A DNA stretch of 43,975 nucleotides from a virus (taxonomy: Duplodnaviria > Heunggongvirae > Uroviricota > Caudoviricetes): IMG/VR virus record IMGVR_UViG_3300013121_000002, positions 1-43,975 of that record. One strand, given 5' to 3'. Both the position numbers and the translations under genes were made by a program. The notes under the pieces are model-generated. The model was not told the origin of the DNA. It ran no database searches and was given only the letters and a program-made list of their open reading frames with translations. How positions within the stretch are numbered: position 1 is the stretch's first letter; each line of letters begins with the position of its first letter. Below, piece by piece: positions 23,936 to 39,767 of this stretch.

Positions 23936-24925
23936 CTAGGCGATGACCTGACCGAAGAACACGCCGAGGTCGGCAGCGACCTGCTTCAAGTCCCACGCCA
24001 TGCGGTTCTGGAAGTAGTCGCTGTGCGCCCGGTCGTCCCGGCCGCGCTCCATGACGCCGCCGATGGCGTTGGTCAGGCCGGGGACGAGCCCGGTCCAAGC
24101 GAAGTTCGCGATGGCGGTCGGCGAATCGAGGCCGGGGTTCGGCTCGATGTAGCAGAGCAGCATCGCCTTCTTGTCGAGGATGTAGTCGAAGTTGTCGGTC
24201 GCACCCTCGTTGGCGTTGTTGAAAATCGAGCGAGCCACGAACACGTTCGGCACCTCGAAAAGCTGACCAAGGATGTCCTCGTCGGCGATGCCCGTCCGCG
24301 TGTACTTGATGCGGTCGGCGATGTCCGGGTGCGAGCGAAGGGTCCGCTTCACGTCCGAACCCATGATGAGGGTGTTCGGCATGAACCCGGTCTTTTCGTG
24401 CATCGTGTCCTTCCACTGGTCGATGACGCCGATGGGGTCGGAGTTGGTGCCGTCGTTGAACTGAATGAACTGGGTCGCGGACGGCGACGAGACAACGCCG
24501 GTCGCCTCGGTGGACCACTTGCCGGTGGCGAAGAAGCTGGTCGCCCAAACGCGATCCTGCTTAATCATCTGCTTCTGCGTGAGCAGAATGGTGGCGTTCT
24601 CGTCGAGCCGGATCGGCTCATCGACGTTGGAACGCTGCCGGTCATCGACGACGTGCTCCAGCGCATACTCGACCGCGCTGTAGGAGCCCTCGCCGAGCTT
24701 GTAGCCGACCTGCTTCGGCCGACCGCCGAGCGGGCGCGGCCCGGATTCATCCCGCCAAAAATAACCGCGGTCGTACACGACGTACTTGTCGGTCTGCTTG
24801 ACGACCGGGATGACACGGGCGGCGCGCTGAGCCACGAAGTTGCGCCGGTCCTGCACATAGTTGACCGAGAACCCGGTGAGGTAACGATCAACGTGAAGCG
24901 TGCCTTCAATGTTTGCGGCAGGCAT
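23936..24925 (-). CDS. Major capsid protein (HK97 fold, lambda gpE-like family)
   Basis: HVDRYLTGFSV.Y, IPV.KQ...Y..Y, SDPI..I, PNTLIMG, ED.L..LFEV motifs; 329 aa; follows scaffold and decoration genes. Confidence 0.9.
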   Translation of the reverse strand: MPAANIEGTLHVDRYLTGFSVNYVQDRRNFVAQRAARVIPVVKQTDKYVVYDRGYFWRDESGPRPLGGRPKQVGYKLGEGSYSAVEYALEHVVDDRQRSNVDEPIRLDENATILLTQKQMIKQDRVWATSFFATGKWSTEATGVVSSPSATQFIQFNDGTNSDPIGVIDQWKDTMHEKTGFMPNTLIMGSDVKRTLRSHPDIADRIKYTRTGIADEDILGQLFEVPNVFVARSIFNNANEGATDNFDYILDKKAMLLCYIEPNPGLDSPTAIANFAWTGLVPGLTNAIGGVMERGRDDRAHSDYFQNRMAWDLKQVAADLGVFFGQVIA

Positions 24926-25024: not shown

Positions 25025-25393
25025 TTACGGCACGCGGCCCGACAGGAGCGCGACGGCGACGATTTCATTCGCGCCACCGGAAACCTCCAGTGCGATGCCG
25101 ATGACCTCGTTGCCGGTGGACGCGGTCGTGAGCTTGCCGTTGCCGTCCGACGCCAGCATCACACCGGCATTGAACGCACCAGCCGCGATGGCCTTGGCGA
25201 TGCCGCCGAACTGCACCGTCACCGGCTTGTTCTCGACCGCGGCCTCCGTGATGATGCCGAGCGCGGCTTCACCAGCACCGGCCAGAACGATGTCGCCATC
25301 GGTGTCAACCTTGGCGGCGTAGTAGAGCTTGGCCGACAGGTCCGCGCCTGCGTTTCGCGCATACGACAGACCAACATCAAGAGCGAAGGACAT
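25025..25393 (-). CDS. Capsid decoration/cement protein (DUF2190-like)
   Basis: AG.DLS...Y..AK, A.GI...A....PVTV...G.AK..A.GA..AG..LASD.NGK motif. Confidence 0.85.
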   Translation of the reverse strand: MSFALDVGLSYARNAGADLSAKLYYAAKVDTDGDIVLAGAGEAALGIITEAAVENKPVTVQFGGIAKAIAAGAFNAGVMLASDGNGKLTTASTGNEVIGIALEVSGGANEIVAVALLSGRVP

Positions 25394-25538: not shown

Positions 25539-26708
25539 TTAGTTCGCGTCGCCCTGATAGGCGCGGAAATCATCCGGGAAATCGGTGCGAGCCTTCTGCA
25601 ACGCCTCGGTACGCGACAGACGCGGATTGGCGGCGCGGACCTCATCGACCCGCTTCTCGAAATTCCTCGCCGCCGCCTTGGCAGCATCGCGCGAGCCGAT
25701 GGTGCTGAACGCACCCTTGATCGCGGCGTCACCGGCCTTGAGCATGGCGGCCAGCGCGTCGCCGGTCGCCTTGTCCATGCCGCCGATGGCCTTGAGCACC
25801 TTGGCCTTGACGGCAGTCTCGCCGGGTAGGTTGCCGAGTTCGTCAGCGGCGCGCTTCTCCAGCGCCTCCGTCTCGCGCAGATCGCGCTCCTTGGCGAGGT
25901 CGGACTGCGCCTTGGCGATGTCCTCGGCCTGCGCCTTCATGACGGCGAACACGTCGGGGCCGACCACCGACTTGCGGATCGTGCGACCGGCAATGACAAC
26001 CGTCTCGTCGCCCGAGGCAGCCTTGGCGATGTCGGCGGCGCGATCCGGGGCGGCCTTGGCGAGGAAGCCCGCCTTGTCGGCGTCCGGCAGCGCGTTGTAG
26101 TGCGCCTTCTCCACATCGGTGAGAGCAGCAATGGCCTTGAGCGTGTCACGCTCGGCAGTCATGGCCTTGAGCGCGTCGGAAGCCTCCTTCGCCGACTTGG
26201 CGACGAGAGCTTCCTTCTCGCCGGACGACTTGGCGAGATCGTTGAGGCGCTTCGTGAGGTCGGCGACCTCCGCAGAAAGCTGGTCCGCGGTCTTGTTCAT
26301 TTCATTTGCTCCTTGTTCGATGAGTTTCGATAGTTCTTCCTCGACCTCGGGCCATTTCGTTCGCGCAATAGCCATGAACTCCTCAACCGAGGTGCGCATC
26401 ATGGTCTGCTTGGCGTTCGGGTCGAGGTTGCCATCGGCCGCGATTGACCGCAGCGATCCCTCCAGCGCGTAAATGGCAGGTCCAAGAACCTCCATCACCT
26501 CGCCGAGTTTCTTTTCCTCCTCCTCCTGCGTGAGGAGTTCGGAGAACGTCTTGGCCCCAGAGCCCACGGACGGCCAATACTTGAGAACGGCATCGACCAC
26601 GTCAGCGGGCTTCCGCTTCAAAATGGCCGCCAGCGCGGGCTCCTGCGCCGGGCGATCAACTGCCGAAATTTCGTTTAGCTTGAAAGCCTTCATCCGCCGA
26701 CGCTGCAT
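25539..26708 (-). CDS. Capsid scaffolding protein; N-terminus carries an EISAVDRPAQ protease-type strand
   Basis: Ala/Lys/Glu-rich coiled-coil ORF between protease and capsid genes, with many hydrophobic-x-K motifs. Confidence 0.75.
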   Translation of the reverse strand: MQRRRMKAFKLNEISAVDRPAQEPALAAILKRKPADVVDAVLKYWPSVGSGAKTFSELLTQEEEEKKLGEVMEVLGPAIYALEGSLRSIAADGNLDPNAKQTMMRTSVEEFMAIARTKWPEVEEELSKLIEQGANEMNKTADQLSAEVADLTKRLNDLAKSSGEKEALVAKSAKEASDALKAMTAERDTLKAIAALTDVEKAHYNALPDADKAGFLAKAAPDRAADIAKAASGDETVVIAGRTIRKSVVGPDVFAVMKAQAEDIAKAQSDLAKERDLRETEALEKRAADELGNLPGETAVKAKVLKAIGGMDKATGDALAAMLKAGDAAIKGAFSTIGSRDAAKAAARNFEKRVDEVRAANPRLSRTEALQKARTDFPDDFRAYQGDAN

Positions 26709-26729
26709 CTGCGTTCACTCCCGAATTGG

Positions 26730-27791
26730 TTAGTCCACATCTTCATCGACGAGGCGGGAGCCCCCAATCGAGAAGCCCGTGAACTCGCCCGAGCGAAACT
26801 TGTTGAGCAGCACGTCGCTGTCCGGCCGCATCGCGATCATCAGGCCGGTCTGGCGCGTCTCAAGCCCCATTGCCTTGGCGATGTCGGCGGTGACGGGAAA
26901 CGCAAATACAATTTTCCCGATTTCATCGCCAACGTGCATTTCCTTAGCAACGCGACTGTCAAGCATGAAGTCTGTTGCGGCCTTGAGCATCGAGTCCTCG
27001 GGGATGTGGTCGCCCTGAACGTCGAAATACTCCTCGCCGTCGATCTTGCTAACGATTGCCCAGCCGAACACCAGCCCGAGGCTATCGTCAACTTTAATGA
27101 ATTGGACCTTCTCGACCATGCGATCTTTCCAGCCCTCGTCGATTTCCTTGAACTCCTCAGGACCGAACAACAGGTCGCCCGTGAAGGGCTGCACCTTGCT
27201 CAGGTCCACACCGGCCGCATCCCATGTGACCGTGACGTGCGGCTGGTAGCCTTCCCAATCCCACGACGCCCCGGCGTCCTTGAGTGCGGCCCAACGCTCC
27301 GCGAGATCGGGCGACGCAAACTTCAGTACGACCGCCCCACCATCACCGAGCGGGGTCACGCTTCGCTTGCCGCCGCGCACCATCATCGTCGCGACGTTCG
27401 ACGGCGACGGCCACTCCAGCGGCGTCTTGCTGTAGGCGATGGTGACGTGCATATCCTCGGCGGGCATCGTCGTCGGGAAGCCCTGCGCCTTCGCCCACTC
27501 GATGAGCTTGTCAGCGTTCAGCAGGGGCCGGTTGACGTACAGGGTCTTGCCTGCCGCGAACTTGAACACCTCGGCGAAGGATCGAGCGGTTGTCTTGCGA
27601 ACCCACTGACCGCCGTCCTTGGGCTTCTCCCAGCCGTTCCGCACCGCGGTCCATGCTGATCCGAAGGCTGCCGATTCGCTCTTGTCGTTGGCGAGCGAGG
27701 CGTTGACCACCTGCCGAAAACGGGTCTGCGCATCAGCCGGTAGCGCGTCGCGCACCGCCTGTGGAAGGTCCGCGTTCGTCGAGTATGGCAC
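26730..27791 (-). CDS. Fusion: ChaB + 2H phosphodiesterase (Acb1/T4 gp57B-like) + XkdF-like prohead serine protease
   Basis: ChaB: MPYSTNADLP..VR..LP..AQ..FR...N.....AF..AW.AV. 2H motifs: DMHVTIAYSK and YQPHVTVTW. Protease: GLVFGWA, D.QGD.IP, KEMH, FTGFSIGG. Confidence 0.85.
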   Translation of the reverse strand: MPYSTNADLPQAVRDALPADAQTRFRQVVNASLANDKSESAAFGSAWTAVRNGWEKPKDGGQWVRKTTARSFAEVFKFAAGKTLYVNRPLLNADKLIEWAKAQGFPTTMPAEDMHVTIAYSKTPLEWPSPSNVATMMVRGGKRSVTPLGDGGAVVLKFASPDLAERWAALKDAGASWDWEGYQPHVTVTWDAAGVDLSKVQPFTGDLLFGPEEFKEIDEGWKDRMVEKVQFIKVDDSLGLVFGWAIVSKIDGEEYFDVQGDHIPEDSMLKAATDFMLDSRVAKEMHVGDEIGKIVFAFPVTADIAKAMGLETRQTGLMIAMRPDSDVLLNKFRSGEFTGFSIGGSRLVDEDVD

Positions 27792-27825
27792 CTGTCGGTG
27801 TTCCTGTCCGGGGACGCTACCGCAG

Positions 27826-27915
27826 CCCCGGTTGGAAACTCCTACCCGAAGCCAGCTAGTAGGCTGCCGCTATATGCAGGAAACCCCAAACAGACAAACT
27901 ACCCCGTTTGGAAAC
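27826..27915 (-). promoter_or_regulatory. Candidate promoter flanked by 14-bp direct repeats, upstream of the protease-capsid operon
   Basis: Minus strand TTGTCT (27897-27892), 17 nt, TATAGC (27874-27869); repeats GTTTCCAAACGGGG (27915-27902) and GTTTCCAACCGGGG (27839-27826). Confidence 0.5.
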
Positions 27916-27918
27916 CAA

Positions 27919-28890
27919 TCACTCGACAGCCTCGGAACGGATTTCAACGGCGACGACACACCGGCAATTTATTACCGTTTCGGCTGGAGCGGTCATATCG
28001 CCGGGGTACATCAGCAGGTTCCCAAGCCCGTCCTCAAATGGCTCATCCATGCCGCGTTCCTGCAAGTCCATCGACGCGTGGTGATCGCGGGTCCGGGCGT
28101 CCGGCGTCGAACGCCAGATGCGCACCACGCGGCTCTTGGGCAGGCCAACCTGCTCGACCACCTGCCGCACACTCTCATCGCGCGCCTCGTTGACCGTCCG
28201 CAGCATTTCTGTCCGGGCGATGGTTTCCGAGCGCATCATCAGCGCCCGGTCGCGGTAGCGTTCCACCATGCGGTCGATCTGTGCCGACGATAGCGGGGTC
28301 TGGTTGGTGATCGCGGCGCTGACCGTGCGGTCGAAGCGCCTGTCGCGGAGATCGCGCGCCAGTGCCTCGGCCGAGCCGTTCTCCAGCAGGCGGCGATAGT
28401 TGTTGACGGCAGCGTACTGGCCGGTCGTCAGGCCAATGCTATCCCGGAACACACGCGCCGCAGCCACCGGGCCAAGCCCACGTTCGAGCGCGCCGGTCAT
28501 CGCCACCCGCAACGTCTCCCGCTGCTGCTCACGCAGCGCCTGCACGAACTGAAGCGTCGAGTTCCGCATCAGTCCGGCCGCGCGAGGGTTGGTCGGATCG
28601 AAGGCAATCCCGATAGCCGGGTAGCGCGAGCGCAGCGCCGCGGCGAGATGGGCAGCTTCAGCGCCGCCTACCGCCTGAAACGCATCGGCGATCACGGTGC
28701 CGAGACGAACGATGTGGCTGTCGATCACCGCCATCGCGCCGCTGAGATCACCCGCCTCCAGATAATCGGCGATCTCGCGCACGACATAGTCGCTGCGCGT
28801 GTTCCTGAGAAATTCGAGGAAGGCTTCCTGAACGACCACCTCCTGCTGACGTAGCAGGCGGTCAAGGCGTAGTTGCTCGGCGCTCGGCAT
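27919..28890 (-). CDS. Minor head protein (MuF / SPP1 gp7-like)
   Basis: RSETIARTE, W.STPDARTRDHH..MD...R.MDEPF......L.YPGD...P..E.INCRC. Confidence 0.92.
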   Translation of the reverse strand: MPSAEQLRLDRLLRQQEVVVQEAFLEFLRNTRSDYVVREIADYLEAGDLSGAMAVIDSHIVRLGTVIADAFQAVGGAEAAHLAAALRSRYPAIGIAFDPTNPRAAGLMRNSTLQFVQALREQQRETLRVAMTGALERGLGPVAAARVFRDSIGLTTGQYAAVNNYRRLLENGSAEALARDLRDRRFDRTVSAAITNQTPLSSAQIDRMVERYRDRALMMRSETIARTEMLRTVNEARDESVRQVVEQVGLPKSRVVRIWRSTPDARTRDHHASMDLQERGMDEPFEDGLGNLLMYPGDMTAPAETVINCRCVVAVEIRSEAVE

Positions 28891-28934: not shown

Positions 28935-29285
28935 TCAGTCGTCTACGCCCAAATCTCGTTTCAACAACATTCGGATGTAGGCAGCCACGCTCTTGCCGAG
29001 GGTGTGGGCTCGCGCCTCGACCGCGTCGTATAGCGTCTTGTGGCAAGTGACCCGGACGTGGTGTTGCCGCTTGTCGCCGACGACCTTCTGAACGCCGAGC
29101 TTAATGCGGCGATGCCGAACCGACATATAGGGTCGATCCAATTCCCGCGCCGTCGCCCGAATACGAACACCCCGCGCGGCATCGCGCCGGATGATCGCGT
29201 CCTCCTCGGGGGAGAACTTCTTCGCCAGCCGCTTTAGACGAACTCCTTCGGCGGCAGCGGTATCGTTTGATTCGTCGGTCGCCAT
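28935..29285 (-). CDS. Putative DNA-binding protein (HTH-like + ribbon-helix-helix)
   Basis: FSPEEDAII...G..IR..ARELDR...SVR.R..KLG followed by VRVT...LY..V..RA...GKSVAAYIR.LL. Start is uncertain (52-nt overlap with the upstream gene, no clear RBS). Confidence 0.6.
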   Translation of the reverse strand: MATDESNDTAAAEGVRLKRLAKKFSPEEDAIIRRDAARGVRIRATARELDRPYMSVRHRRIKLGVQKVVGDKRQHHVRVTCHKTLYDAVEARAHTLGKSVAAYIRMLLKRDLGVDD

Positions 29286-29611
29286 AGGTGGAGGGTATAG
29301 TTATGAACATTGATGTGATCGGTGACGGCGACGTGCAACTGCATCGCCACCTCATCGGGCCGAAAGAACATACGCTTGATGCGATCCATTTCAGCCCACG
29401 TCGGCGTGCGTGACGGCAGGCTGACCGAGACGTGATCCCAACCCTCCCCCGTAGTGGCAAGCACCTTGAGCATCGCCGCGCCGGGTATAACGATCAACAG
29501 TGGGATGTAGAACACCCCGGCTTTGGAGCGAGGCGGTAGCGGATCACCCCACAACGCCTTGACCTCGGGGCCTTCGTAACGAAACTGGTTGAGACGAGTG
29601 AGGTTGATCAC
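29234..29611 (-). CDS. Conserved phage protein (DUF7694-like)
   Basis: GWDHVSVSL..RTPTWAEMD.IK..FF..DE...QLH motif; start re-called at GTG 29611 (GTGA coupling). Confidence 0.75.
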   Translation of the reverse strand: MINLTRLNQFRYEGPEVKALWGDPLPPRSKAGVFYIPLLIVIPGAAMLKVLATTGEGWDHVSVSLPSRTPTWAEMDRIKRMFFRPDEVAMQLHVAVTDHINVHNYTLHLWRPTNQTIPLPPKEFV

Positions 29612-29865
29612 CAGAACGCCTCGACCTCGGCCTCGGTCAGCAGGCCATCGGGAATCTCGGCTGTCCAATAGACGCGAACGATCTCATCCACCAAACGATA
29701 CTCATCCGGTCGATCACTAATCGGCATCCCCTGCTGCACCCTGTTCTCGGCCAGCCACTTCACCGGATGCTCCTCGATGATGGTGACGTTATCCACCTCA
29801 TCGCCCGGCCGCCCCACCCTGAACTGCGCGCGGAAGCAGTAAGAGATCATCCACCTAGTCGCCAT
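29608..29865 (-). CDS. Hypothetical protein
   Basis: 85-aa ORF filling the operon gap, with overlapping start/stop contexts. Confidence 0.5.
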   Translation of the reverse strand: MATRWMISYCFRAQFRVGRPGDEVDNVTIIEEHPVKWLAENRVQQGMPISDRPDEYRLVDEIVRVYWTAEIPDGLLTEAEVEAFW

Positions 29866-30415
29866 TGATCCACTCCGGGGTTGGTGCGCCGAGCATTTCT
29901 CGCGTCCATCCTGCTAACGAACGCACCCGGTCTTTTAGCAGCGGCAACTGCTGTTTCCAAGCGTCTCGGTAGCGTTCGCCCTCCGACCAGAGTTTGTTAT
30001 CGTCATAGCGCCCGCTAACCGTCATCGGGATGCCGCACAGGATCAGCTTGTCGCAGTGGCGCAGGCCGACGAGGGTGCCCAGCAGTCCGCTCGCGCCACC
30101 CTCGCACTCGATGTAGTGCATCGGCAACTTGAGCCCTCGGCCGAGCTTGTGGTTGCGGAAAATGCCAGTCCAGAGCAGGCCCGGCTCCGGTCGCCCGGCG
30201 TCACGGCGCACCTTCAGCCACGGCTCAAACAATTCGGGATGGAACGACGCCCAGTGGTGGACCGGACCATCGTAGTCGCGCCCGGCACGCTTCACCGCCA
30301 CGATGATCGGCTCGACCGGGGCAATCAGGCGCTTCGCCTCGGCGACTTCCTCCCACACCCCGGCACCGCGGCCGAGGATGAGGCCAAACCGACCATGCAG
30401 TGGTGGATAGTTCAC
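29855..30415 (-). CDS. MAF/DUF115 (MptE-like) Rossmann-fold glycosyltransferase-like protein
   Basis: GLILGRG..VW, IVAVKRA, GGASGLLG..VG....DKLILCGIPM; resembles motility-associated-factor type domains. Confidence 0.6.
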   Translation of the reverse strand: MNYPPLHGRFGLILGRGAGVWEEVAEAKRLIAPVEPIIVAVKRAGRDYDGPVHHWASFHPELFEPWLKVRRDAGRPEPGLLWTGIFRNHKLGRGLKLPMHYIECEGGASGLLGTLVGLRHCDKLILCGIPMTVSGRYDDNKLWSEGERYRDAWKQQLPLLKDRVRSLAGWTREMLGAPTPEWINGD

Positions 30416-31167
30416 GATTCGATACGCCGACGCTCATCCCACCAAGGATCGGCGAACTCGACATCCTGCAAATGAGCGAACCACGGACCACCGCTTGTGT
30501 AATGGATGATGCCCGGCATTCCACCGGGCACCTGATAGGTGTGATTGTAGCCGACGAGATAGTTCCAATAGAGCGGCAATTCGCCGATCTCGTCATCCAG
30601 CAGCCACGAGAAGCGATGCAGGTCGCGTCCCGGTAATGAATTGAGGATGCCGGTCGAGGATATGTCGCGTAGTACGTTGTTCGACGGATGATCGCAATTG
30701 AACAGCATCACCGATGACCAATTCTTCCGCGCGTAACGCGTCTGGACCTGACCATCCATCTTCATGTCGTTGCGCGGCTCGTGTCGATGGTGAACGCAGA
30801 ACAGTGCCTTATCCGGGTGCGCCTCGACCAACTCGAACAACGTAACCAAGTCCGTGGTGACGAGCATGTCGCAATCCATGAACAGGCTCCAGCCGGTCTG
30901 TGCGAGGTAGGGCACGAAGAACCGGCTGATCGCGAACTCGGTACTCATCGGCGCGTCGGAAATGGTGTCGTACAGGTGACCGTCCTTGATGGTTGTCGGA
31001 CGGGTGTATAGCCCCAACTGCCGCAGATCGCTCAGGCGCAGCGTGCGGATCGGCAACCGCTCACCATCGCGAAGGTGGCGCTGGATAGAGTGCCGCGCAA
31101 CCAGCAGAGCTTCTTCTTCGCGCGGATCATAACCAATATAGATCGAACGGTTCACTGAAGTCCCCAT
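30412..31167 (-). CDS. GT-A fold glycosyltransferase (GT8-like)
   Basis: IYIGYDPRE, STEF..SRF.VP, LFMDCDML (DxD), RKNWSSVMLFN, IGELP..WN.LVG, IIHYTSGGPW. Confidence 0.85.
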   Translation of the reverse strand: MGTSVNRSIYIGYDPREEEALLVARHSIQRHLRDGERLPIRTLRLSDLRQLGLYTRPTTIKDGHLYDTISDAPMSTEFAISRFFVPYLAQTGWSLFMDCDMLVTTDLVTLFELVEAHPDKALFCVHHRHEPRNDMKMDGQVQTRYARKNWSSVMLFNCDHPSNNVLRDISSTGILNSLPGRDLHRFSWLLDDEIGELPLYWNYLVGYNHTYQVPGGMPGIIHYTSGGPWFAHLQDVEFADPWWDERRRIES

Positions 31168-31170
31168 TTG

Positions 31171-31677
31171 TTAGACTGTGTCGGTGAGCGGTATCTTTGG
31201 GCGGGTGTAGGCCATGGTGCCGTGATGAGCGCAGTATTTTCCGCGCTTGATCTCGCGCCCACAGATAACGAAATTGCCCTTGGCCTCGCGCGGATCATCC
31301 CACATCGGCCACGGACACTGCTTGCGCCAGTCGTCGCCGGTACGCGGGAACGGCAGCCTCAGTGGTGTGAACTCGACAACGACCGTGGCGACCGGAACGA
31401 CAGCGACCGGGACGACCGTGACGACAGCCGCGGGCACTGGGTCGAGGTGTACTTTGGTGTAGGTCGGCGCAACGAATGAGGTCGCCTTGTTGAGGTTGTA
31501 TGTCTTGCGCCGCGGACCCGGCACCTTCTGACCGAGATTGAGCCGTGCCGCCTTGTTGGCAATTGCACCACGCGGCAGGTCAAGCTCAGTGACCAGCATC
31601 GAGATCGACACGTTCGGATCAGCCCACGCCTGACGCAGGCGCTCGATCCGCTCATCGGTCCATGTACTTTTATTCAC
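31171..31677 (-). CDS. gcrA: GcrA-family cell-cycle transcriptional regulator
   Basis: WTDERIERLRQ.W.....S...L..EL...R.AI..K..RL.L and C-terminal CPWP..D......CG......YC..H...AY. Confidence 0.88.
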   Translation of the reverse strand: MNKSTWTDERIERLRQAWADPNVSISMLVTELDLPRGAIANKAARLNLGQKVPGPRRKTYNLNKATSFVAPTYTKVHLDPVPAAVVTVVPVAVVPVATVVVEFTPLRLPFPRTGDDWRKQCPWPMWDDPREAKGNFVICGREIKRGKYCAHHGTMAYTRPKIPLTDTV

Positions 31678-31680
31678 ACA

Positions 31681-32380
31681 CTACTCCATCAACCAGCTAA
31701 GCAATTCTTGTGGCGTACACCGCGGGAAGCAAGTAACTAATGATCTCGGGCTACCGTTGCGAACCTCGATGTTGTGTTCCTTCAACTGAGGCAGCGCCGT
31801 CTCGAACAGCCACGGCAGGTGATCAAGACTACCATTCGGACGCCCCACACCGATACCGTGTTCGTCGCGAGTGCCGTCCACCCCGAGGATGCCGATCTTC
31901 CTCGGCCGAAGCAGGTAAGCCAGCCCGAGCGCGCCCCACGCGCTGTTGCCAGTGTGCAGCGCGCCCGGATCATCAGACAGGGCAATCATGTTGCGGCTGG
32001 GCTCCTTGCCAGCGACACGATGCAGGTAGGTCACATGCTCTGGCGCGTGAACGCGGTGGAAGGACAGCCGAGCCCGCGCCGTGCCATAATCCAGTGGCAC
32101 CGCCGCGTAGTAGTGTGTCCTTGCCCGTGGCGTGTTCATCAGCGCCTGCGCTCGCGGGTTGGGATCGACCGTCACCCATGCGCTGGCCGTGAACGCGAGG
32201 ATCGCCTGCTTGACGGCGATAGTGAACACGCCGGGCAGTCGGTCGAGCACGCTAAAATCCTCCAGACGAAGGATCGACGGCCCGGTCGCAACGATCAGGA
32301 TTCGGTCGGATTGACCTGTGACACGGCCGAAGCGGACGCCGTCATAGGCGACGGCACCTCGCTTGGCTTCGACGGCGACA
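31681..32380 (-). CDS. Second MAF/DUF115 (MptE-like) glycosyltransferase-like protein; start unresolved
   Basis: ILIVATGPS, TIAVKQA, W.TVDP, HTGNSAWGALGLAYLL..RKIGILGVDG motifs; no ATG/GTG/TTG in frame close to the conserved N-terminus. Confidence 0.65.
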
Positions 32381-32921
32381 TGACCATCAGATACTGCGCC
32401 GGGTCCGCTGGCAGCGTCAGGAACCAGTTCCCGTCGAACCCCAGTTGCAGCGTCCGGCGTCCCTTCTGGTCGCGCTCGGGCAACCTTCTTAGGAATTGTT
32501 TGACCGCGCGTTTGACGCCGGGGAAATCGGGGTGGTTGAAATCGTGACCGCACAGCAGCCCTCCGGGACGCACCTTCGGTGCCCAAGCCAGAATGTCGGC
32601 AGCCACAGCCTCAAACGAATGATCCGCGTCGATGTAGACGAAATCGAACGTCGCATCCGCTATCAGCTTGGCTGCCGCCAGCGAATCCATGTGCATAATC
32701 GTGTAACGATTGGCATAGGGTAGAAGGTTGCTGATCGTGTGATCCTTACCGTGCGGACGCTCGGCCCAATTATCGACCAGCGTCAACTGCAACAGCCGGT
32801 GACGGTCGAACAGGGCACGCGAGAACGCGCCGACGAGAACTCCGACTTCCGCGCCCAGCACCGTTCTATCGGCGGGCAATTTGTTTAGTAACGACCAAGC
32901 ACGTTTGCCGCGTTCAGCCAT
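32295..32921 (-). CDS. Class I SAM-dependent methyltransferase (Methyltransf_24-like)
   Basis: GAEVGV..G, LTLVDNW, FDFVYIDADHSFEAV.ADI.AW.PKV.PGGLLCGHDF. Confidence 0.9.
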   Translation of the reverse strand: MAERGKRAWSLLNKLPADRTVLGAEVGVLVGAFSRALFDRHRLLQLTLVDNWAERPHGKDHTISNLLPYANRYTIMHMDSLAAAKLIADATFDFVYIDADHSFEAVAADILAWAPKVRPGGLLCGHDFNHPDFPGVKRAVKQFLRRLPERDQKGRRTLQLGFDGNWFLTLPADPAQYLMVMSPSKPSEVPSPMTASASAVSQVNPTES

Positions 32922-33588
32922 TGTATTCCATCGCTATGTTGCGTTGATCCAAAGCGTGCATGACACGATAGTTGGGAACGGCGGCGAGCACGGCGTCGCG
33001 CTCCTCCGCACCCAACACCTCGACGAGGAGAAGCGGCTTGCACCGCTCCAGCGTCTCGCGTGCGCCGACAAGCGCCTTGGGCTCGTTACGCTCAACGTCG
33101 AGCTTGATGAATGATACGTCCTTACCCCGCAGCACGTCGTCGAGGCGCACCGTGCGGACATTGGCGAGCAGTTTCTTGCCCTCGCGCGGGATCAGGCTGG
33201 CCGCCGAGGTAAGTGGTGCAATGATGTTGGCGTACAGCGGGATCAGTTCTCCATCCTGATCCGACACCGCGGACGCGTGAACCGTCACGGCATGTTCGAC
33301 GGCATTCATGCGCAGGTTCGCACGCAGGCGCACATTGACAGCCGGGTTAGGCTCGAACGCGATCACCTGCCGACCCATCATCGCCGCGGCCAGCGAATAA
33401 ATGCCGGTGTAAGCGCCGACATCGACGAACATCCCGGAGCGGAGCTTGCACTGCTGCGTCCAGAAGGTCAGCGACTCAGGCTCGAACGGACGCGTCGCCG
33501 CCACCCGGTCACCGCCTGCGATCAGCTTAACCTGCGTCAGCCCGGCAGGAACTACCGTTGCGGCCGGAAACAGACTGTGCGTCCTCAA
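32914..33588 (-). CDS. FkbM-family methyltransferase
   Basis: FVDVGAYTGIYS, VIAFEPNP, AVSD..G, TVRLDD, FIKLDVE..E..AL.GA..TL....P.L.VE; start re-called at TTG 33588 (TTGA coupling). Confidence 0.9.
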   Translation of the reverse strand: MRTHSLFPAATVVPAGLTQVKLIAGGDRVAATRPFEPESLTFWTQQCKLRSGMFVDVGAYTGIYSLAAAMMGRQVIAFEPNPAVNVRLRANLRMNAVEHAVTVHASAVSDQDGELIPLYANIIAPLTSAASLIPREGKKLLANVRTVRLDDVLRGKDVSFIKLDVERNEPKALVGARETLERCKPLLLVEVLGAEERDAVLAAVPNYRVMHALDQRNIAMEYNG

Positions 33589-34421
33589 TTCAACCCCCTG
33601 CCTAGATGCTGCCATGCCAGCCCGGCCCTGATCTCGCCGAGCGACCACTGCGAGTAACCAATTCCGGCCAACCACGTCGTGCGCGCCGGAAAGCTCAGCT
33701 TGTCGTCGAGGCTATGTGACGAGACGGCCCACGCTCGCGAACCACGATCACAGGCGATGACCGGGATGCCATTGACGACACCATCAACCCCGGTGTTCGA
33801 GTTCCACGTCACCAACGCACGCGCCTGCTGGAGCGCGTGCCTGAGCGGGCCGACGCTGATCGGCACCGGGGGAATGTTGGGGTAGTGCTTCTGCCAGTCC
33901 GGCAGGAGACGAGGATGCGGCCGAAACATCACCGGCACACCGCGCTTGTAGAAATGATTGACCGCGGCAACACACCACGCCGGGTGATCGGTGTCCTGCA
34001 CCGTCACATCCCAAGGCACCTGCCCACACACGACGAAAGGCTGGCCCGGACGGTTGCGTTCCCACTGCTGGGCACGAACGCCAATCAAGCGCCAGCGATC
34101 CAGTGGCGTCGCCGCATCAACGCGGAACTCGGCGTTGCCGTTGATCCCGCCCCAGCCCATGCTCCAGTACGCGCCCCGGCGAACGAATGCCTGCTCAACG
34201 ACGAGCAGGCTGGTCCCTGAGTGACGCTCCAGAACCGCCTGCTTGGTCGGCGACGGGTACGATTTCTTCCACATCCCGAAGATCACGGCGATGTCGCAAT
34301 CAACATAACCATCCTCCAGCGGATAGAGAATCGAGTTGGGGATGCCGGTGGCGACCGCCTGCATGATCTCGATGTGAACCGGAACCATCGTCTTAAGCGG
34401 AACGAAAACGCCTACCCGCAT
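33585..34421 (-). CDS. Capsule-biosynthesis-type (KpsS/KpsC-like) GT-B glycosyltransferase
   Basis: VVCGQVPWD..V, FRPHP, LVTWNSNTGVDGVVNGIPV, LA.IGY.QWS..EI..G.AW; start ATG 34421. Confidence 0.75.
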   Translation of the reverse strand: MRVGVFVPLKTMVPVHIEIMQAVATGIPNSILYPLEDGYVDCDIAVIFGMWKKSYPSPTKQAVLERHSGTSLLVVEQAFVRRGAYWSMGWGGINGNAEFRVDAATPLDRWRLIGVRAQQWERNRPGQPFVVCGQVPWDVTVQDTDHPAWCVAAVNHFYKRGVPVMFRPHPRLLPDWQKHYPNIPPVPISVGPLRHALQQARALVTWNSNTGVDGVVNGIPVIACDRGSRAWAVSSHSLDDKLSFPARTTWLAGIGYSQWSLGEIRAGLAWQHLGRGLN

Positions 34422-34422
34422 C

Positions 34423-34563
34423 CTACGGTTCTTCCATTTCGTTAGCGATCCGCCGAAGCTCAGCCGCAACCTCCTTGAGGGTCAGGCGAGGCATCGCCCG
34501 CTCAGCGGCGGCCGACACCGCGTCGTTCAATTCGTTCAGCGCCTCGGCGTGGTCAGCGTTCAT
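34423..34563 (-). CDS. Small helical protein (46 aa), paralog of 34616..34765
   Basis: Starts at the ATG of an ATGA overlap inside the repeat; L.D.VSAA..RA...L..K....ELR pattern shared with its neighbour. Confidence 0.55.
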   Translation of the reverse strand: MNADHAEALNELNDAVSAAAERAMPRLTLKEVAAELRRIANEMEEP

Positions 34564-34619
34564 GGATTGAACTCCGGGTAGGTTTCGACCGTACCGTCCC
34601 AATACTCGATGCGGCTCAC
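34560..34619 (-). CDS. 19-codon mini-ORF (GTG start) repeating the C-terminus of 34762..35076
   Basis: GTG AGC CGC ATC GAG TAT TGG ... AAT CCA TGA; GTGA overlap with the upstream stop and ATGA overlap with the downstream start. Confidence 0.4.
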   Translation of the reverse strand: MSRIEYWDGTVETYPEFNP

Positions 34620-34765
34620 AGAGCCTCGATTTCTTCAAGCAGCTTGCGAAGCTCCACAAGGATGTCCTTCATTGGAAGAACATTGTGGGCTCGTTTGATG
34701 GCGGCTGACACATCATCCGCCAAAGCCCGCTTAGCAGCGAAGGCTGGGAAATTGTTAGGGTTCAT
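34616..34765 (-). CDS. Small helical protein (49 aa)
   Basis: MNPNNFPAFAAKRALADDVSAAIKRA...; ATGA-coupled to the upstream gene. Confidence 0.55.
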   Translation of the reverse strand: MNPNNFPAFAAKRALADDVSAAIKRAHNVLPMKDILVELRKLLEEIEAL

Positions 34766-35076
34766 GGATTGAACTCCGGGTAAGTTTCGACCGTACCGTC
34801 CCAATACTCAATACGGCGGATCGGCTTCATCCGGTCGTCAACCCAGCGAGCCCGGCCAATGGCGTCAATAAGAGCGAACCCCACCTGCACCGTCAGCCGC
34901 GGGATGTCCGACGAAACCACCGCGAATGCGACCGCCGTCACGTTGGGAATGACCTCGCCGGTCAGGGCGTTGTAGACGGTCGTGCCGTTGGCAGTACCGT
35001 CGCTCCTGACCCCGAGCGTGTCAGGCATTACATTCGCTTTCGGCGGCTCAGTCGCCAATCGTTTGCGTTCGATCAC
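34762..35076 (-). CDS. Hypothetical protein
   Basis: 104-aa ORF, GTGA-coupled to the upstream methyltransferase; possible later start at MPDTLG. Confidence 0.6.
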   Translation of the reverse strand: MIERKRLATEPPKANVMPDTLGVRSDGTANGTTVYNALTGEVIPNVTAVAFAVVSSDIPRLTVQVGFALIDAIGRARWVDDRMKPIRRIEYWDGTVETYPEFNP

Positions 35077-35705
35077 AGGATGCTCGCCACAAACACGATG
35101 GTGCGGCAGCCAACCGGATCAGAAAGGATCGCCGCGTCCTGCTTGTGCTTGCCCTTCTGACCGCCGAGGAAGTCCAAACCCCACCCGGCGCTGCGAAGCT
35201 CATTGGTTAGCGTAAGCGGCGTGTAATGGCGATGGTGCCACGGGTTGACGACCGGATTGAACGGTACCACGTCCTGATTGGGCACCGAACCGACGAACAA
35301 CGCCCGCGGCCCCGCCCGCTCGCGCATCTGGCGCAACAGCACCTGCGGATCGCGAAGATGCTCGATCACCTCGAACGCGGTGTAGCCCGAGTAGACGCCG
35401 GGACTGAGCGCACCGAGTTCGAGATCGGTGTTGATGCGCGTGATGTTGGGGAGCTTGTAGTTCTCCTCGCCGTAAGCCAGCGCGCCAGCGTCGTTGTCGT
35501 AGCTGTCGATCTTGCAGCCGAGGCTGATGCCCAACAGCCATGTCCCGTAGCCCGCGCCGCAGCCGAGGTCGGCGATGCGCTTCAACTGGCTGGGAACCAG
35601 ATCAATCGCCACGCTGTGCCGGACGGCAGCGAACAGGTAGCGCGCGAGGTGATCGTCTCGGATGCCTCCGAGCGAGGTTGACATCTGCCTGCCGTTCTTA
35701 ATCAT
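35073..35705 (-). CDS. Class I SAM-dependent methyltransferase
   Basis: DHLARYLFA, IADLGCGAGYG, AFEVIEHL.DP, FVGSVPN, NPWHHRHYT; GGGGAG RBS. Confidence 0.9.
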   Translation of the reverse strand: MIKNGRQMSTSLGGIRDDHLARYLFAAVRHSVAIDLVPSQLKRIADLGCGAGYGTWLLGISLGCKIDSYDNDAGALAYGEENYKLPNITRINTDLELGALSPGVYSGYTAFEVIEHLRDPQVLLRQMRERAGPRALFVGSVPNQDVVPFNPVVNPWHHRHYTPLTLTNELRSAGWGLDFLGGQKGKHKQDAAILSDPVGCRTIVFVASIL

Positions 35706-35769
35706 TTCAAACTCCCCTTATGTTGAGATACGGGCCGGGCAGTCCTACACCGCCCGACCCGTCTCCCCA

Positions 35770-36270
35770 TCACCTAGCACCCGCTGCTACCCGGTTGCCA
35801 GATTCCCTAAGCAGGCTATGTCCGTGGGCTGCCGCCTCGACAGCAAGCTGATCTGCAATTTCGTTATAGTGGTTGCCGTCGTGTCCGCGCACCCACAGGA
35901 ACTGCGCGCCGCCCTTGAGCCGGTCGATCCGTTCCCAGAGATCGCGATTGATGACCGGCTTCTTCTGCGCGTTAATCCAGCGACGGCGCTTCCACCCCTC
36001 CAGATACTCGCTCGCGCCCTTGACGACGTACTGGCTGTCCGAGACGACGAGAAGGCGGCACCCCGGCGCGTGTTCCCAGCACCATGACAGCGCCTCGATC
36101 ACCGCCGTCAGTTCCATCCGGTTGTTGGTGCTGTTGCACTCGTGCCCGAGCAAGCGAACGATCTCGGTTTCATTCTCGTCTATACCGATGCAACCCCAGC
36201 CACCAGTGCCTCCGGGGTTGCCGCCCGTGATCGCGCCGTCCGTGAAGAACTTGATCCGGTTCATCGCCAC
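35770..36270 (-). CDS. rnhA: Ribonuclease HI
   Basis: FTDGA...NPG..GGWG, STNNRMELTAVIEAL, SDSQYV..G, W...K.V.NRDLW, WVRGH.G..YNEIADQLA; all four catalytic acidic residues are present. Confidence 0.95.
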   Translation of the reverse strand: MAMNRIKFFTDGAITGGNPGGTGGWGCIGIDENETEIVRLLGHECNSTNNRMELTAVIEALSWCWEHAPGCRLLVVSDSQYVVKGASEYLEGWKRRRWINAQKKPVINRDLWERIDRLKGGAQFLWVRGHDGNHYNEIADQLAVEAAAHGHSLLRESGNRVAAGAR

Positions 36271-36929
36271 GCTTTCGTTATCCAGTCGATAGCCGCATTG
36301 TGCGGCTTGAGCGGCCCGGCGAACACGATGATAGCTGCACCGGGCGGCGGCGCAGTCCTGTTCTTAACGAGCGTGCGACGGTCGATGAAAAAGCCGGGCG
36401 GCGTCAAGTCCTGCAACAGCGGCAGGTCCGGGCAGAGCAATTCGACCGCCTTCTGATCGCCGTAGTGCCCCGCCTGCGTCATGTAGTAGGACCGGCGCTC
36501 CTCGAACCGCTCCCATACCCGGCGCAGCTTCGGGCCGATCACCTGCGTGCAGGAGCCGTACCGGCACGGGTAGGCACCGTTGCTGGCGATGCGCGCGAAG
36601 TTCGAGGTGATCGCGAAGTCGGCTTCGACCTGCGCCAGCGGCGTGAGATCGCCGATGATGACGGTGTCGAGATCGAGGTAGATGACCCGGCGTCCGGCAC
36701 GCCACGTCGGCTCATACAGCATCATTTTAGCCCACCATCCGGGCAAACCCGCAGGAGCTTCGACGCGCTCGACGCCGAGCGGTAACATGCGCGTGGGATG
36801 ATCGGTGATGCAGGCGCGGTCAAACGGGAGCGGCAGGTGGCGCTCGACCATGTTGAACAGGCGCTGAACGTACTCAGGACCGTATTTCGTTCCGGTCCAG
36901 ACTACCGCGACGACGAGCGGCGCGGTCAT
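36261..36929 (-). CDS. GT-A fold glycosyltransferase (GT8-related phage family)
   Basis: W.GTKYGPEYV.RL..MV.RHL, CITD, GWWAK..L, YLDLDTVI (DxD), I.VF.G..KPH. Confidence 0.85.
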   Translation of the reverse strand: MTAPLVVAVVWTGTKYGPEYVQRLFNMVERHLPLPFDRACITDHPTRMLPLGVERVEAPAGLPGWWAKMMLYEPTWRAGRRVIYLDLDTVIIGDLTPLAQVEADFAITSNFARIASNGAYPCRYGSCTQVIGPKLRRVWERFEERRSYYMTQAGHYGDQKAVELLCPDLPLLQDLTPPGFFIDRRTLVKNRTAPPPGAAIIVFAGPLKPHNAAIDWITKAWR

Positions 36930-37327
36930 GTCGTCTCCTCAATAACTTTAGGGCCGCGCCAGTAGAAATCACCATGACCGCGGGGCATGTAGCGAACAAT
37001 TGGCGGTCGGCGGTTGAGGAGGATGTCGATCAGCGAGCCAATCGGGCCACCCGGCTCGCCGCGTGAGTCGCGAATGAATGAGTTGGTGAACTCGTCAAGC
37101 TGTGCGCCATGTTGCAGTCCGACCGAAATAATCATCGCCGAGTCCTTGACCGACACATCGAGGGTAGTGCCCATCTTGTCGGTCGCCAGCCAGACCTCGC
37201 CGACACGGCCATCTGAGTAGAAGCCTATCGTAGCGAGAAAAATCTGTTCACGGTCATCAGGCCAGCGATGATTGAACTTGAACGTCTCCGACAAGCGGCG
37301 ACTTGGCATTGATTCGCGTTCGCTCAT
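36926..37327 (-). CDS. Stand-alone TSCPD-like domain (class II RNR C-terminal family)
   Basis: RR..ETFKF, ATIGFY.DGRVGEVW, K.G..L....KD.A..IS.GLQHG motifs; GGGGAG RBS. Confidence 0.65.
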   Translation of the reverse strand: MSERESMPSRRLSETFKFNHRWPDDREQIFLATIGFYSDGRVGEVWLATDKMGTTLDVSVKDSAMIISVGLQHGAQLDEFTNSFIRDSRGEPGGPIGSLIDILLNRRPPIVRYMPRGHGDFYWRGPKVIEETT

Positions 37328-37342
37328 CTTCTCCCCCTAAAC

Positions 37343-37380
37343 GACAACCCCTCGCAACTCAAGAATTGCAAGGGGCTGTC
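37343..37380 (-). other. 17-bp RNA hairpin at the start of the accessory block
   Basis: Minus strand GACAGCCCCTTGCAATT-CTTG-AGTTGCGAGGGGTTGTC; the mismatches are G-U pairs only on the minus strand. Confidence 0.7.
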
Positions 37381-37387
37381 TTGACGA

Positions 37388-37415
37388 ACCTTAGCACTGC
37401 CGCAGCGAACGGCAA
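37388..37415 (-). promoter_or_regulatory. Candidate sigma70-type promoter for the accessory block
   Basis: TTGCCG, 16 nt, TAAGGT with GTGC upstream; GTGCTAAGGT matches GTGCTATGGT of the 2077-2105 promoter. Confidence 0.5.
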
Positions 37416-39504: not shown

Positions 39505-39767
39505 TCCGCATACCCCTCCGGTTCGAGCACTGATCCCGGCATCCCGTAAGGACGGATCGTGCCGTCAACATTATAGCAGCCGACCTTGGCGTGCCCGGCG
39601 ATCTCGCCCCATGGCAGCCGATCATCAACGCGGTAATCCTTGAAGCCGTGCCCGCGCCCGCCACCCGGCAGCAGCGACAGCGACATGAGCCGGATGACGC
39701 CCTCCTCGTCGGCGGGATGGATCAAGCTGTAGAAGATACCTGTGCGTTCGGTCATTAAGTTCCTCAA
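39501..39767 (-). CDS. Hypothetical protein
   Basis: 88-aa ORF between the two tagged proteins; likely start MTERTG after a GAGGA RBS; ATGA-coupled to the next gene. Confidence 0.55.
   Translation of the reverse strand: MRNLMTERTGIFYSLIHPADEEGVIRLMSLSLLPGGGRGHGFKDYRVDDRLPWGEIAGHAKVGCYNVDGTIRPYGMPGSVLEPEGYAE

Follow-up and report, generated by a model that had tools for sequence, protein, structure and literature searches.

The DNA analysed here, referred to below as the window, is a stretch of 43,975 nucleotides (positions 1 to 43,975) of IMG/VR virus record IMGVR_UViG_3300013121_000002, which comes from an uncultured caudoviricete, measures 107,975 bp, is complete and carries direct terminal repeats. 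Within its head module lies a late gene in which a ChaB domain, a 2H phosphodiesterase domain of the Acb1 family and an XkdF-type prohead serine protease are encoded in one chain. This gene occupies an uninterrupted open reading frame (ORF) of 353 codons on the minus strand (26730-27791), which opens with GTG at 27791, preceded by AGGAA 9 nucleotides upstream, and closes with TAA at 26730-26732. G+C content at third codon positions (GC3) is 0.80, uniform along the gene and alike in its neighbors, and the same architecture occurs on hundreds of independent contigs; both points weigh against an annotation or assembly artefact as the source of the single ORF. The three Pfam domains stand, from N- to C-terminus, at residues 9-66 (ChaB), 82-223 (Acb1) and 230-345 (protease, whose domain we place at 233-353). 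An AlphaFold2 model of the 353-residue fusion, calculated from an alignment of 65 relatives with 42-60% overall identity, has a mean predicted local distance difference test score (pLDDT) of 89.3 and comprises three folded domains with disordered linkers between them, at approximately residues 67-81 and 224-232. The domain order, which had been proposed in a first-pass annotation made from the letters alone, is confirmed by both Pfam and the model. Two structure searches were run with the predicted model, one using Foldseek and the other the Foldseek-independent program VIA. A scan for promoters and terminators around the fusion gene returned nothing informative. Coordinates of the fusion, its parts and the adjoining head genes are collected in Table 1.

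Table 1. Features of the fusion gene and of the surrounding head genes, in window coordinates.
Feature	Position	Strand	Basis
Whole gene, ChaB - Acb1 - XkdF-type protease	26730..27791	-	Continuous ORF, three Pfam domains, >500 relatives
ChaB domain, residues 9-66	27594..27767	-	PF06150; fold match to 1SG7
Disordered linker 1, residues 67-81	27549..27593	-	pLDDT 55-74
Acb1-family 2H phosphodiesterase domain (predicted), residues 82-223	27123..27548	-	PF23474; fold of 7T26/7T27
First catalytic HxT (predicted), H115-V-T117	27441..27449	-	Conserved in aligned relatives
Second catalytic HxT (predicted), H185-V-T187	27231..27239	-	Conserved in aligned relatives
W221, aligned with the C-terminal lid Trp of Acb1	27129..27131	-	phmmer alignment to 7T26
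Disordered linker 2, residues 224-232, containing V226-E-K228	27096..27122	-	pLDDT <50 at 226-229
XkdF-type (Peptidase_S78_2) prohead serine protease, residues 233-353	26733..27095	-	Pfam, PHROG, gp21 fold
Protease H286 and S341	26934-26936 (H286); 26769-26771 (S341)	-	Invariant, 65/65
PF04586 (HK97-type S78), C-terminal part, profile positions 95-158	26610..26813	-	E 1.8e-5, 21.1 bits, cut-off 21
Residues 1-31 encoded by the next gene (putative scaffold), ...EISAVDxPAQ...	26616..26708	-	Conserved motif; complex prediction
Putative scaffolding protein, 389 residues	25539..26708	-	Position and composition only; no Pfam match; PHROGs of unknown function
MuF-like head morphogenesis protein, upstream neighbor	27919..28890	-	PF04233; phrog_3517, E 2e-83
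Cement/decoration protein	25025..25393	-	PF09956
Major capsid protein (E-type)	23936..24925	-	PF03864; phrog_1005, E 4e-79

Assignment of the middle domain to the Acb1 family is supported both by sequence and by the modeled fold. The Acb1 profile PF23474 covers residues 82-223 at E 1.2e-40 and 139 bits (cut-off 27), from profile position 1 to 143 of 144, and a profile search of the genome gave the same coordinates. Foldseek returned Acb1 (7T26) as the best match, with E 9e-10 and a template modeling (TM) score of 0.78, against about 0.54 for E. coli LigT. VIA likewise placed Acb1 (7T27) first, at Z 16.8 and a root-mean-square deviation (rmsd) of 1.8 Å over 135 residues, followed by the phosphodiesterase of Burkholderia phage BCSR5 (Z 14.3), while LigT, CPDase and enzymes of the Usb1 type ranked below the phage phosphodiesterases, with Z no higher than 10.8. 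A LigT-type identity was rejected, since Acb1 is clearly nearest in both searches. The first-pass annotation had recognized an Acb1-like enzyme from two HxT motifs, in the contexts DMHVTIAYSK and YQPHVTVTW; these lie exactly at 27441-27449 and 27231-27239, where it had put them, and the closer resemblance to LigT-type enzymes by which its proposal would have fallen was not seen.

Acb1 is the product of phage T4 gene 57B, and the homologue of Erwinia phage FBB1 is represented by structures 7T26 and 7T27 (PMC9117128). Its catalysis depends on an HxT/HxT tetrad (H44, T46, H113 and T115), accompanied by aromatic stacking residues and by a flexible C-terminal lid whose Trp closes over the ligand; a Glu (E141) contacts N6 of adenine, which explains the requirement of the enzyme for adenosine (PMC9117128). 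In relatives of the fusion the tetrad is kept almost without variation (H115 in 64/64, T117 in 64/64, H185 in 65/65, and Thr or Ser at 187 in 65/65), and across a broader set of 94 domain representatives the four positions are retained in 93-94. The position of W221 is occupied by Trp in 47 of 65 relatives and by Phe or Tyr in 10 more, and is hence aromatic in 57. With all four catalytic residues intact, the domain is predicted to be a phosphodiesterase.

This enzyme might act on RNA, either as an end-healing cyclic phosphodiesterase directed against the damage of host anticodon nucleases or as a Usb1-like RNase on host RNA, and would be made or delivered together with the head proteins. Enzymes of the 2H group commonly process RNA ends bearing 2',3'-cyclic phosphates, LigT, CPDase and Usb1 do appear among the lower-ranked fold matches, and weak Pfam matches to LigT and 2_5_RNA_ligase2 were also obtained; moreover, Iyer et al. 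(2017) offer two options for 2H domains fused to portals or MuF, of which an RNase function is one. Against this stand the wide margin by which Acb1 leads in sequence and fold, the conservation of the lid Trp and of aromatic pocket positions typical of Acb1, and the observation in the same paper that no RNA ligase partner was found for this type of 2H domain. We therefore consider action on RNA distinctly improbable.

The C-terminal domain is recognized by the Peptidase_S78_2 (XkdF) profile PF14550 over residues 230-345 (E 1.1e-7, 32.4 bits, cut-off 24) and matches PHROG families of head maturation proteases. Its modeled fold resembles that of T4 gp21 (5JBL; VIA, residues 229-353, Z 8.3, rmsd 2.7 Å over 107 residues), with the protease of varicella-zoster virus matching the same domain at Z 5.9. 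Residues H286 and S341 are invariant in all 65 aligned relatives, and their conservation and spacing suggest that they form the catalytic pair. The fusion to a prohead protease first read from the letters is upheld by S78 and S78_2 matches, and its place inside the head module by MuF and capsid neighbors. The two profiles match this locus alone in the 107,975-bp genome, and ClpP (PF00574) and S49 (PF01343) proteases are absent from it, as judged by profiles that did match control genomes; searches with S77 (PF03420) and DUF2213 (PF09979) also returned nothing from the genome, but these matched no control genome either, so that absence is not shown for them. On this evidence the fusion appears to be the only recognizable prohead protease of the phage. 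A further PHROG, phrog_1530, bears the name "DNA methyltransferase"; we rejected this name for the fusion, since the match is confined to the protease part (residues 223-350, profile positions 231-353 of 379), and the name probably derives from cargo fused in other members of that family. A 245-residue Rhizobium phage protein (MN988470.1, 34593-35330; locus L084, 3647-4384) has been annotated through phrog_1530 as "DNA methyltransferase/prohead protease".

The complete protease fold is not contained in one polypeptide. The fusion ORF stops 12 residues past S341, in a tail of low pLDDT, and in all relatives the chain stops approximately 15 residues beyond GFSIGG, the serine motif. A match to the C-terminal portion of the HK97-type S78 profile (PF04586) spans the gene boundary, crossing both the TAA of the fusion and a TGA and continuing into the next gene. 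That gene encodes the putative scaffold, a protein rich in Ala, Lys and Glu, and has the protease on one side and the cement and capsid genes on the other. The downstream product starts, in 41 distinct loci, with the sequence RRIMRxFxIxEISAVDxPAQ, and within this segment E13, V17, P20, Q22, A25 and K31 are invariant. Elsewhere the two genes abut or overlap by 1, 4, 8 or more nucleotides, in varying frames; in the window they share a frame, TAA and TGA stand between them, and the ATG is preceded by a GGGAG ribosome-binding site. Because frames vary between loci, and because stops and a ribosome-binding site intervene here, protease and scaffold are taken to be separate chains; readthrough or frameshifting that would join them was rejected on the same grounds, namely the two stops in the window and the different frames at other loci. 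As the split is seen throughout the family, it represents a two-chain variant rather than a broken gene. The XkdF-type prohead protease accordingly presents itself as a two-gene enzyme across the loci sampled (L004-L080).

A complex prediction for protease residues 228-353 with scaffold residues 1-45 scored 0.75, compared with 0.11 for the best of three controls; the mark applied to such scores is reached by 58 of 80 solved complexes and by 2 of 110 mismatched pairs. Separate runs share at least 67% of contacts, with partner pLDDT of at least 52, and the predicted contacts bring scaffold residues 1-19 against protease residues 336-352, S341 and 259-264. This suggests, at the level of models, that the N-terminus of the scaffold completes the protease fold and would thereby tether the protease, with whatever is attached to it, to the assembling core.

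What is attached begins with ChaB, recognized by PF06150 at residues 9-66 (E 3e-10, 41 bits, cut-off 27) and by the fold of E. coli ChaB (1SG7; VIA, residues 2-67, Z 9.6, rmsd 1.6 Å over 65 residues). The linkers on either side of the Acb1 domain vary widely in length among relatives, from 0 to 85 residues for the first (alignment A1) and from 5 to 70 for the second. The first-pass annotation had seen these linkers as bounded by short Lys motifs and had suggested that self-processing could release the enzyme. The motifs are present (VRK at residues 64-66, VFK at 75-77, VEK at 226-228 and FIK at 231-233), but a role for them as cleavage sites gained no independent support, K66 and K233 being intrinsic to the adjoining domains. 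K66 is conserved in 59 of 60 relatives that bear ChaB and marks the end of that domain, whereas K233 (57/65) belongs to the protease's first strand and occurs in bare, cargo-free proteases too; between them, E227 (58/65) and K228 (57/65) close the Acb1 domain. Motifs of the form hydrophobic-x-K number 15 in the protein, against 8.9 +/- 2.3 in shuffled sequences, which is a mild enrichment. Taken together, the data on Lys motifs neither show nor exclude cleavage. An internal start at M225, which would yield a free protease, was rejected, as relatives have His, Val or Ile at that position.

Another short sequence, NP[YN]H..G.F, recurs as a tag at domain junctions of related proteins. It is not found in the fusion protein itself and occurs in the linkers of only five relatives that have the protease motif. 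In the same phage a giant polyvalent protein (39764-43960, minus strand) carries four copies in the form NP[YN]HDERGRF, at residues 160, 392, 630 and 1103, and similar tags lie in linkers flanking the Acb1 or protease domains of fusion relatives (P0059, P0061, P0117, P0099 and P0021). A separate conserved insert of about 25 residues (ARH...IQxIHDxAxxLGAxC) appears in one or the other linker of P0004, P0065, P0075 and P0118 (alignment A1), standing before the Acb1 domain or after it, and has no counterpart in the window's protein.

The architecture is far from unique to this virus. More than 500 database proteins match the whole fusion, many with all three Pfam domains and others without ChaB. 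An exhaustive, profile-free search with the Acb1 domain alone returned 2,156 cluster representatives, 569 of them at E 1e-30 or below. Among the best 141 newly returned representatives, only 6 are 230 residues or shorter and 32 exceed 1,000 residues. In 94 representatives of up to 800 residues, the identified partners include proteases of three families (XkdF, 12; DUF2213, 11; S78, 4), portals (12) and MuF proteins (5), along with ADP-ribosyltransferase (ART) and NUDIX modules that belong to polyvalent proteins. Of the identified partners, proteases are the most frequent (27/94, against 17/94 for portal and MuF combined). For the DUF2213 part the match is to PHROG families named "head maturation protease" (E 7e-78), and the Acb1 domain is N-terminal in all three protease families (S78 and DUF2213 examples, P0122 and P0178). 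Among cultured phages the Acb1-like part is found at the C-terminal end of portals, as in phiPSA1, Rhizobium phages of the RHEph04 type, Synechococcus phages and Pam3; residues 450-617 of the Pam3 portal (8HDS) are the closest sequence of solved structure (E 1.4e-21). Judged by these sequence matches, the distribution indicates that this Acb1 subfamily is rarely free-standing, being fused instead to three families of head protease, to portals, to MuF and to giant polyvalent proteins.

A complementary view is obtained from the protease. Among 57 distinct XkdF-protease ORFs, from related viral contigs and hence a sample biased to relatives of the query, 23 are bare, 7 carry ChaB only, 9 carry Acb1, 7 carry ChaB and Acb1, and 11 carry some other N-terminal extension of at least 70 residues, two of which have weak Pfam matches to VapB and ParB-like families. 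On a tree of the proteases the Acb1 label needs eight changes, at least two of them forced by well-supported branches, and two proteases with a different N-terminal module (L043/L049) form the sister group of the window's protease (99/86 support); the tree, built from 123 columns and having many weak nodes, shows interspersion rather than history. These comparisons of sequence suggest that the protease N-terminus behaves as a slot for swappable cargo.

The abundance of bare proteases also bears on the notion that the attached domains have no enzymatic purpose, so that ChaB and the 2H domain would occupy the prohead core as a structural spacer or scaffold-like filling, or that the ORF itself is an artefact. 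Same-family proteases do work without an N-terminal module (23/57), and ChaB is without an established function. On the other hand, the four catalytic residues are kept across relatives of 42-60% overall identity, the same ORF architecture is carried by hundreds of independent contigs, and coding GC3 is uniform at 0.80. We regard this explanation as very improbable, indeed close to negligible.

Beyond the fusion and its immediate partners, the setting offers some hints about the host. A scan of bacterial genomes yielded only six loci, matching the protease part only and all from Alphaproteobacteria. Because the nearest bacterial protease domains are all alphaproteobacterial, and because the phage carries a GcrA-like gene, the host is probably an alphaproteobacterium. 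This GcrA-like regulator (31171-31677) belongs to a block immediately upstream of MuF (28935-37415, minus strand), in the orientation of the head genes, which also contains glycosyltransferase-like, methyltransferase and DUF7694 genes. The interval between MuF and the fusion (27792-27918, minus strand) measures 127 nucleotides, unusually long for a tightly packed operon; its RNA folds into three hairpins at -55.9 kcal/mol (z -1.97), a stability equaled in 6 of 200 shuffles and therefore borderline.

The reading that we favor, with a confidence slightly better than even, is that ChaB and Acb1 are cargo loaded into the head with the protease, then released and ejected to counter cyclic-nucleotide immunity. 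The fusion would be a small "polyvalent" head protein whose C-terminal domain is the head-maturation serine protease. The N-terminal segment of the scaffold would pair with this domain and complete its fold, drawing the fusion into the prohead along with the cargo that makes up its N-terminal two thirds, that is, ChaB and the Acb1-family 2H phosphodiesterase on flexible linkers. After assembly the protease would cut the scaffold and, probably, the linkers, so that folded ChaB and Acb1 might remain inside the head and, in the next round of infection, exit together with the DNA. In that new host the Acb1 domain would cleave 3'-5' cyclic oligonucleotide alarms, of the kind used by the cyclic oligonucleotide-based antiphage signaling system (CBASS) and possibly by type III clustered regularly interspaced short palindromic repeat (CRISPR) systems, from the first minute. 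Loading of the Acb1 domain into the prohead is plausible, because the subfamily is repeatedly fused to head-internal proteins and because the protease is predicted to dock the scaffold N-terminus.

Several points weigh against this reading. Prohead proteases normally digest themselves and disappear from the head, and retention of the cargo is an assumption, made by analogy with the internal proteins of T4. The border lysines, conserved as parts of the ChaB and protease domains, pinpoint no cleavage site. In free Acb1 the chain ends with the lid, as a free C-terminal tail, whereas in the fusion the W221 segment leads on into linker 2 and the protease; cutting close to E227-K228 would give W221 a short free tail, as in the lid of free Acb1, which is compatible with the model but is not evidence for it. 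Identity to assayed Acb1 is only about 24-26%, and in a phmmer alignment anchored on the lid Trp the adenine-reading Glu (E141 of FBB1 Acb1) aligns with K215, a position at which 26 of 65 relatives have Glu; E216 adjoins K215, and the alignment may be one residue off. Because the adenine-reading Glu aligns with K215, the base or substrate preference of the domain cannot be deduced. The complex prediction may pass through memory of, or likeness to, single-chain proteases such as T4 gp21 rather than through binding. Ejection as a common denominator of the subfamily is weakened by the portal-fused copies, which stay in the capsid unless cut off. Finally, the full-length architecture was found in no cultured phage (no record with at least 80% coverage).

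The prevalence of proteases among the partners lends itself to a different account, in which Acb1 acts late in the producing cell, while the head is being assembled or earlier, as an antidote tied to the protease or scaffold that triggers CBASS, an eraser matched to its trigger in amount, time and place, with packaging incidental. Prohead proteases, including T4 gp21, activate CD-NTases (nucleotidyltransferases of the cGAS/DncV-like type) by cutting an activation loop, and CBASS fires late (bioRxiv 10.64898/2026.03.04.709575, Hobbs and Kranzusch); mutations that escape CBASS map to a prohead protease-scaffold, and the scaffold domain alone triggers toxicity (bioRxiv 10.1101/2023.05.21.541620). 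The protease domain of the fusion matches the fold of gp21 (Z 8.3), three protease families together make up the largest share of identified partners (27/94, as against 17 with portal or MuF), and portal-fused copies could not be ejected unless cleaved. In its boldest form this account would have phages repeatedly weld Acb1 onto the protease that CBASS senses, in three families, with the fold completed by scaffold docking, such that each active protease carries its own alarm eraser; that device, too, strikes us as improbable. An adjacent gene would suffice for co-expression, making fusion unnecessary, and the same Acb1 domain is found in giant polyvalent proteins and on MuF, both of them classic injected cargo (PMC5512222). 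Neither of the two preprints on CBASS triggers mentions such fusions. On the protease, the slot that holds Acb1 can also be empty or filled by unrelated cargo, and interchangeable cargo points to a general loading device rather than to a pairing specific to CBASS. Overall, we consider the antidote account unlikely.

If cargo loading is correct and Acb1 is packaged, phages of this kind would arrive already armed against cyclic-nucleotide immunity. To our knowledge, Acb1 has so far been known as a free, soluble enzyme; were the packaged form real, prediction of anti-CBASS activity from genomes would have to change, since no stand-alone acb1 gene would appear. As prohead proteases and scaffold domains switch CBASS on, the fusion also offers a direct and testable link between trigger and countermeasure. 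From a more practical perspective, the variable N-terminus of XkdF-type proteases, together with the strand donated by the scaffold, suggests a simple, naturally occurring means of loading capsids with proteins of choice.

With respect to known systems, the domain shares with the Acb1 enzymes of T4 and FBB1 the Pfam family, the compact 2H fold, the HxT/HxT tetrad and an aligned Trp in the lid region; it differs in lying inside a head protein instead of forming a free protein of about 150 residues, in its low identity (approximately 24-26%), and in the Lys that aligns with the adenine-reading Glu. Fusions are not mentioned by Hobbs et al. (2022; PMC9117128). We found no paper on Acb1 joined to a prohead protease, on a ChaB partner or on a scaffold-donated strand, nor any relevant phage paper on Acb1 with ChaB, on XkdF with scaffold, on the BCSR5 phosphodiesterase or on Acb1 fusions, in a literature whose coverage by these searches was incomplete. 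The portals of Pseudomonas phage phiPSA1 (gp44), Rhizobium phage RHEph04 and cyanophage Pam3 (gp3, 8HDS) carry the same Acb1 subfamily; unlike the protease fusion, however, the carrier there is the portal, present in 12 copies and remaining in the virion, and the Acb1-like domain is C-terminal. The accessible portion of the Pam3 paper does not describe this domain.

Kin of the protease itself, and its sister group on the tree (L043/L049), are the "DNA methyltransferase/prohead protease protein" of Rhizobium phage RHph_TM3_3_9 (QIG67381.1) and the homologue from Roseobacter phage RDJL Phi 1, in which the protease is 59-65% identical and the gene order is the same (protease, scaffold-like gene, small head gene, capsid E); their cargo, unlike that in the window, is an unrelated N-terminal module of about 125 residues. 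The internal proteins of T4, and Alt, are counter-defense or host-modifying proteins that enter the prohead, are freed there through trimming by gp21 and reach the next cell along with the injected DNA. The present case resembles theirs in that the fusion includes a protease of gp21 fold, and departs from it in that the T4 cargo is a separate gene product with a short targeting peptide, whereas here it is covalently joined to the protease.

The nearest precedents are conceptual. Iyer et al. (2017; PMC5512222) describe effector domains on proteins of the head interior, including 2H domains fused to MuF or portal, place assemblin-like peptidases at the C-termini of phage polyvalent proteins, and propose that the MuF- and portal-fused 2H domains degrade nucleotides of nucleotide-activated defense systems. 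Iyer et al. (2022; PMC9503650) again regard such 2H domains as probably packaged and injected against SMODS (CBASS), cyclic mononucleotide and CRISPR signaling, and name a capsid-processing serine peptidase as a carrier of Nudix rather than of 2H domains. The fusion in the window has the features of a polyvalent protein, with unrelated activities in one chain, an assemblin-like peptidase at the C-terminus and a gene placed among virion genes. It thus resembles the proteins treated in those accounts in bearing an effector on a head-interior protein, in its C-terminal peptidase and in its predicted role; ChaB, the XkdF-type protease and the scaffold-donated strand are not mentioned in the accessible portions of either. 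Hence the idea of a head-packaged 2H effector is already published (PMC5512222, PMC9503650), and carriage of Acb1 by the protease is a widespread variant of it.

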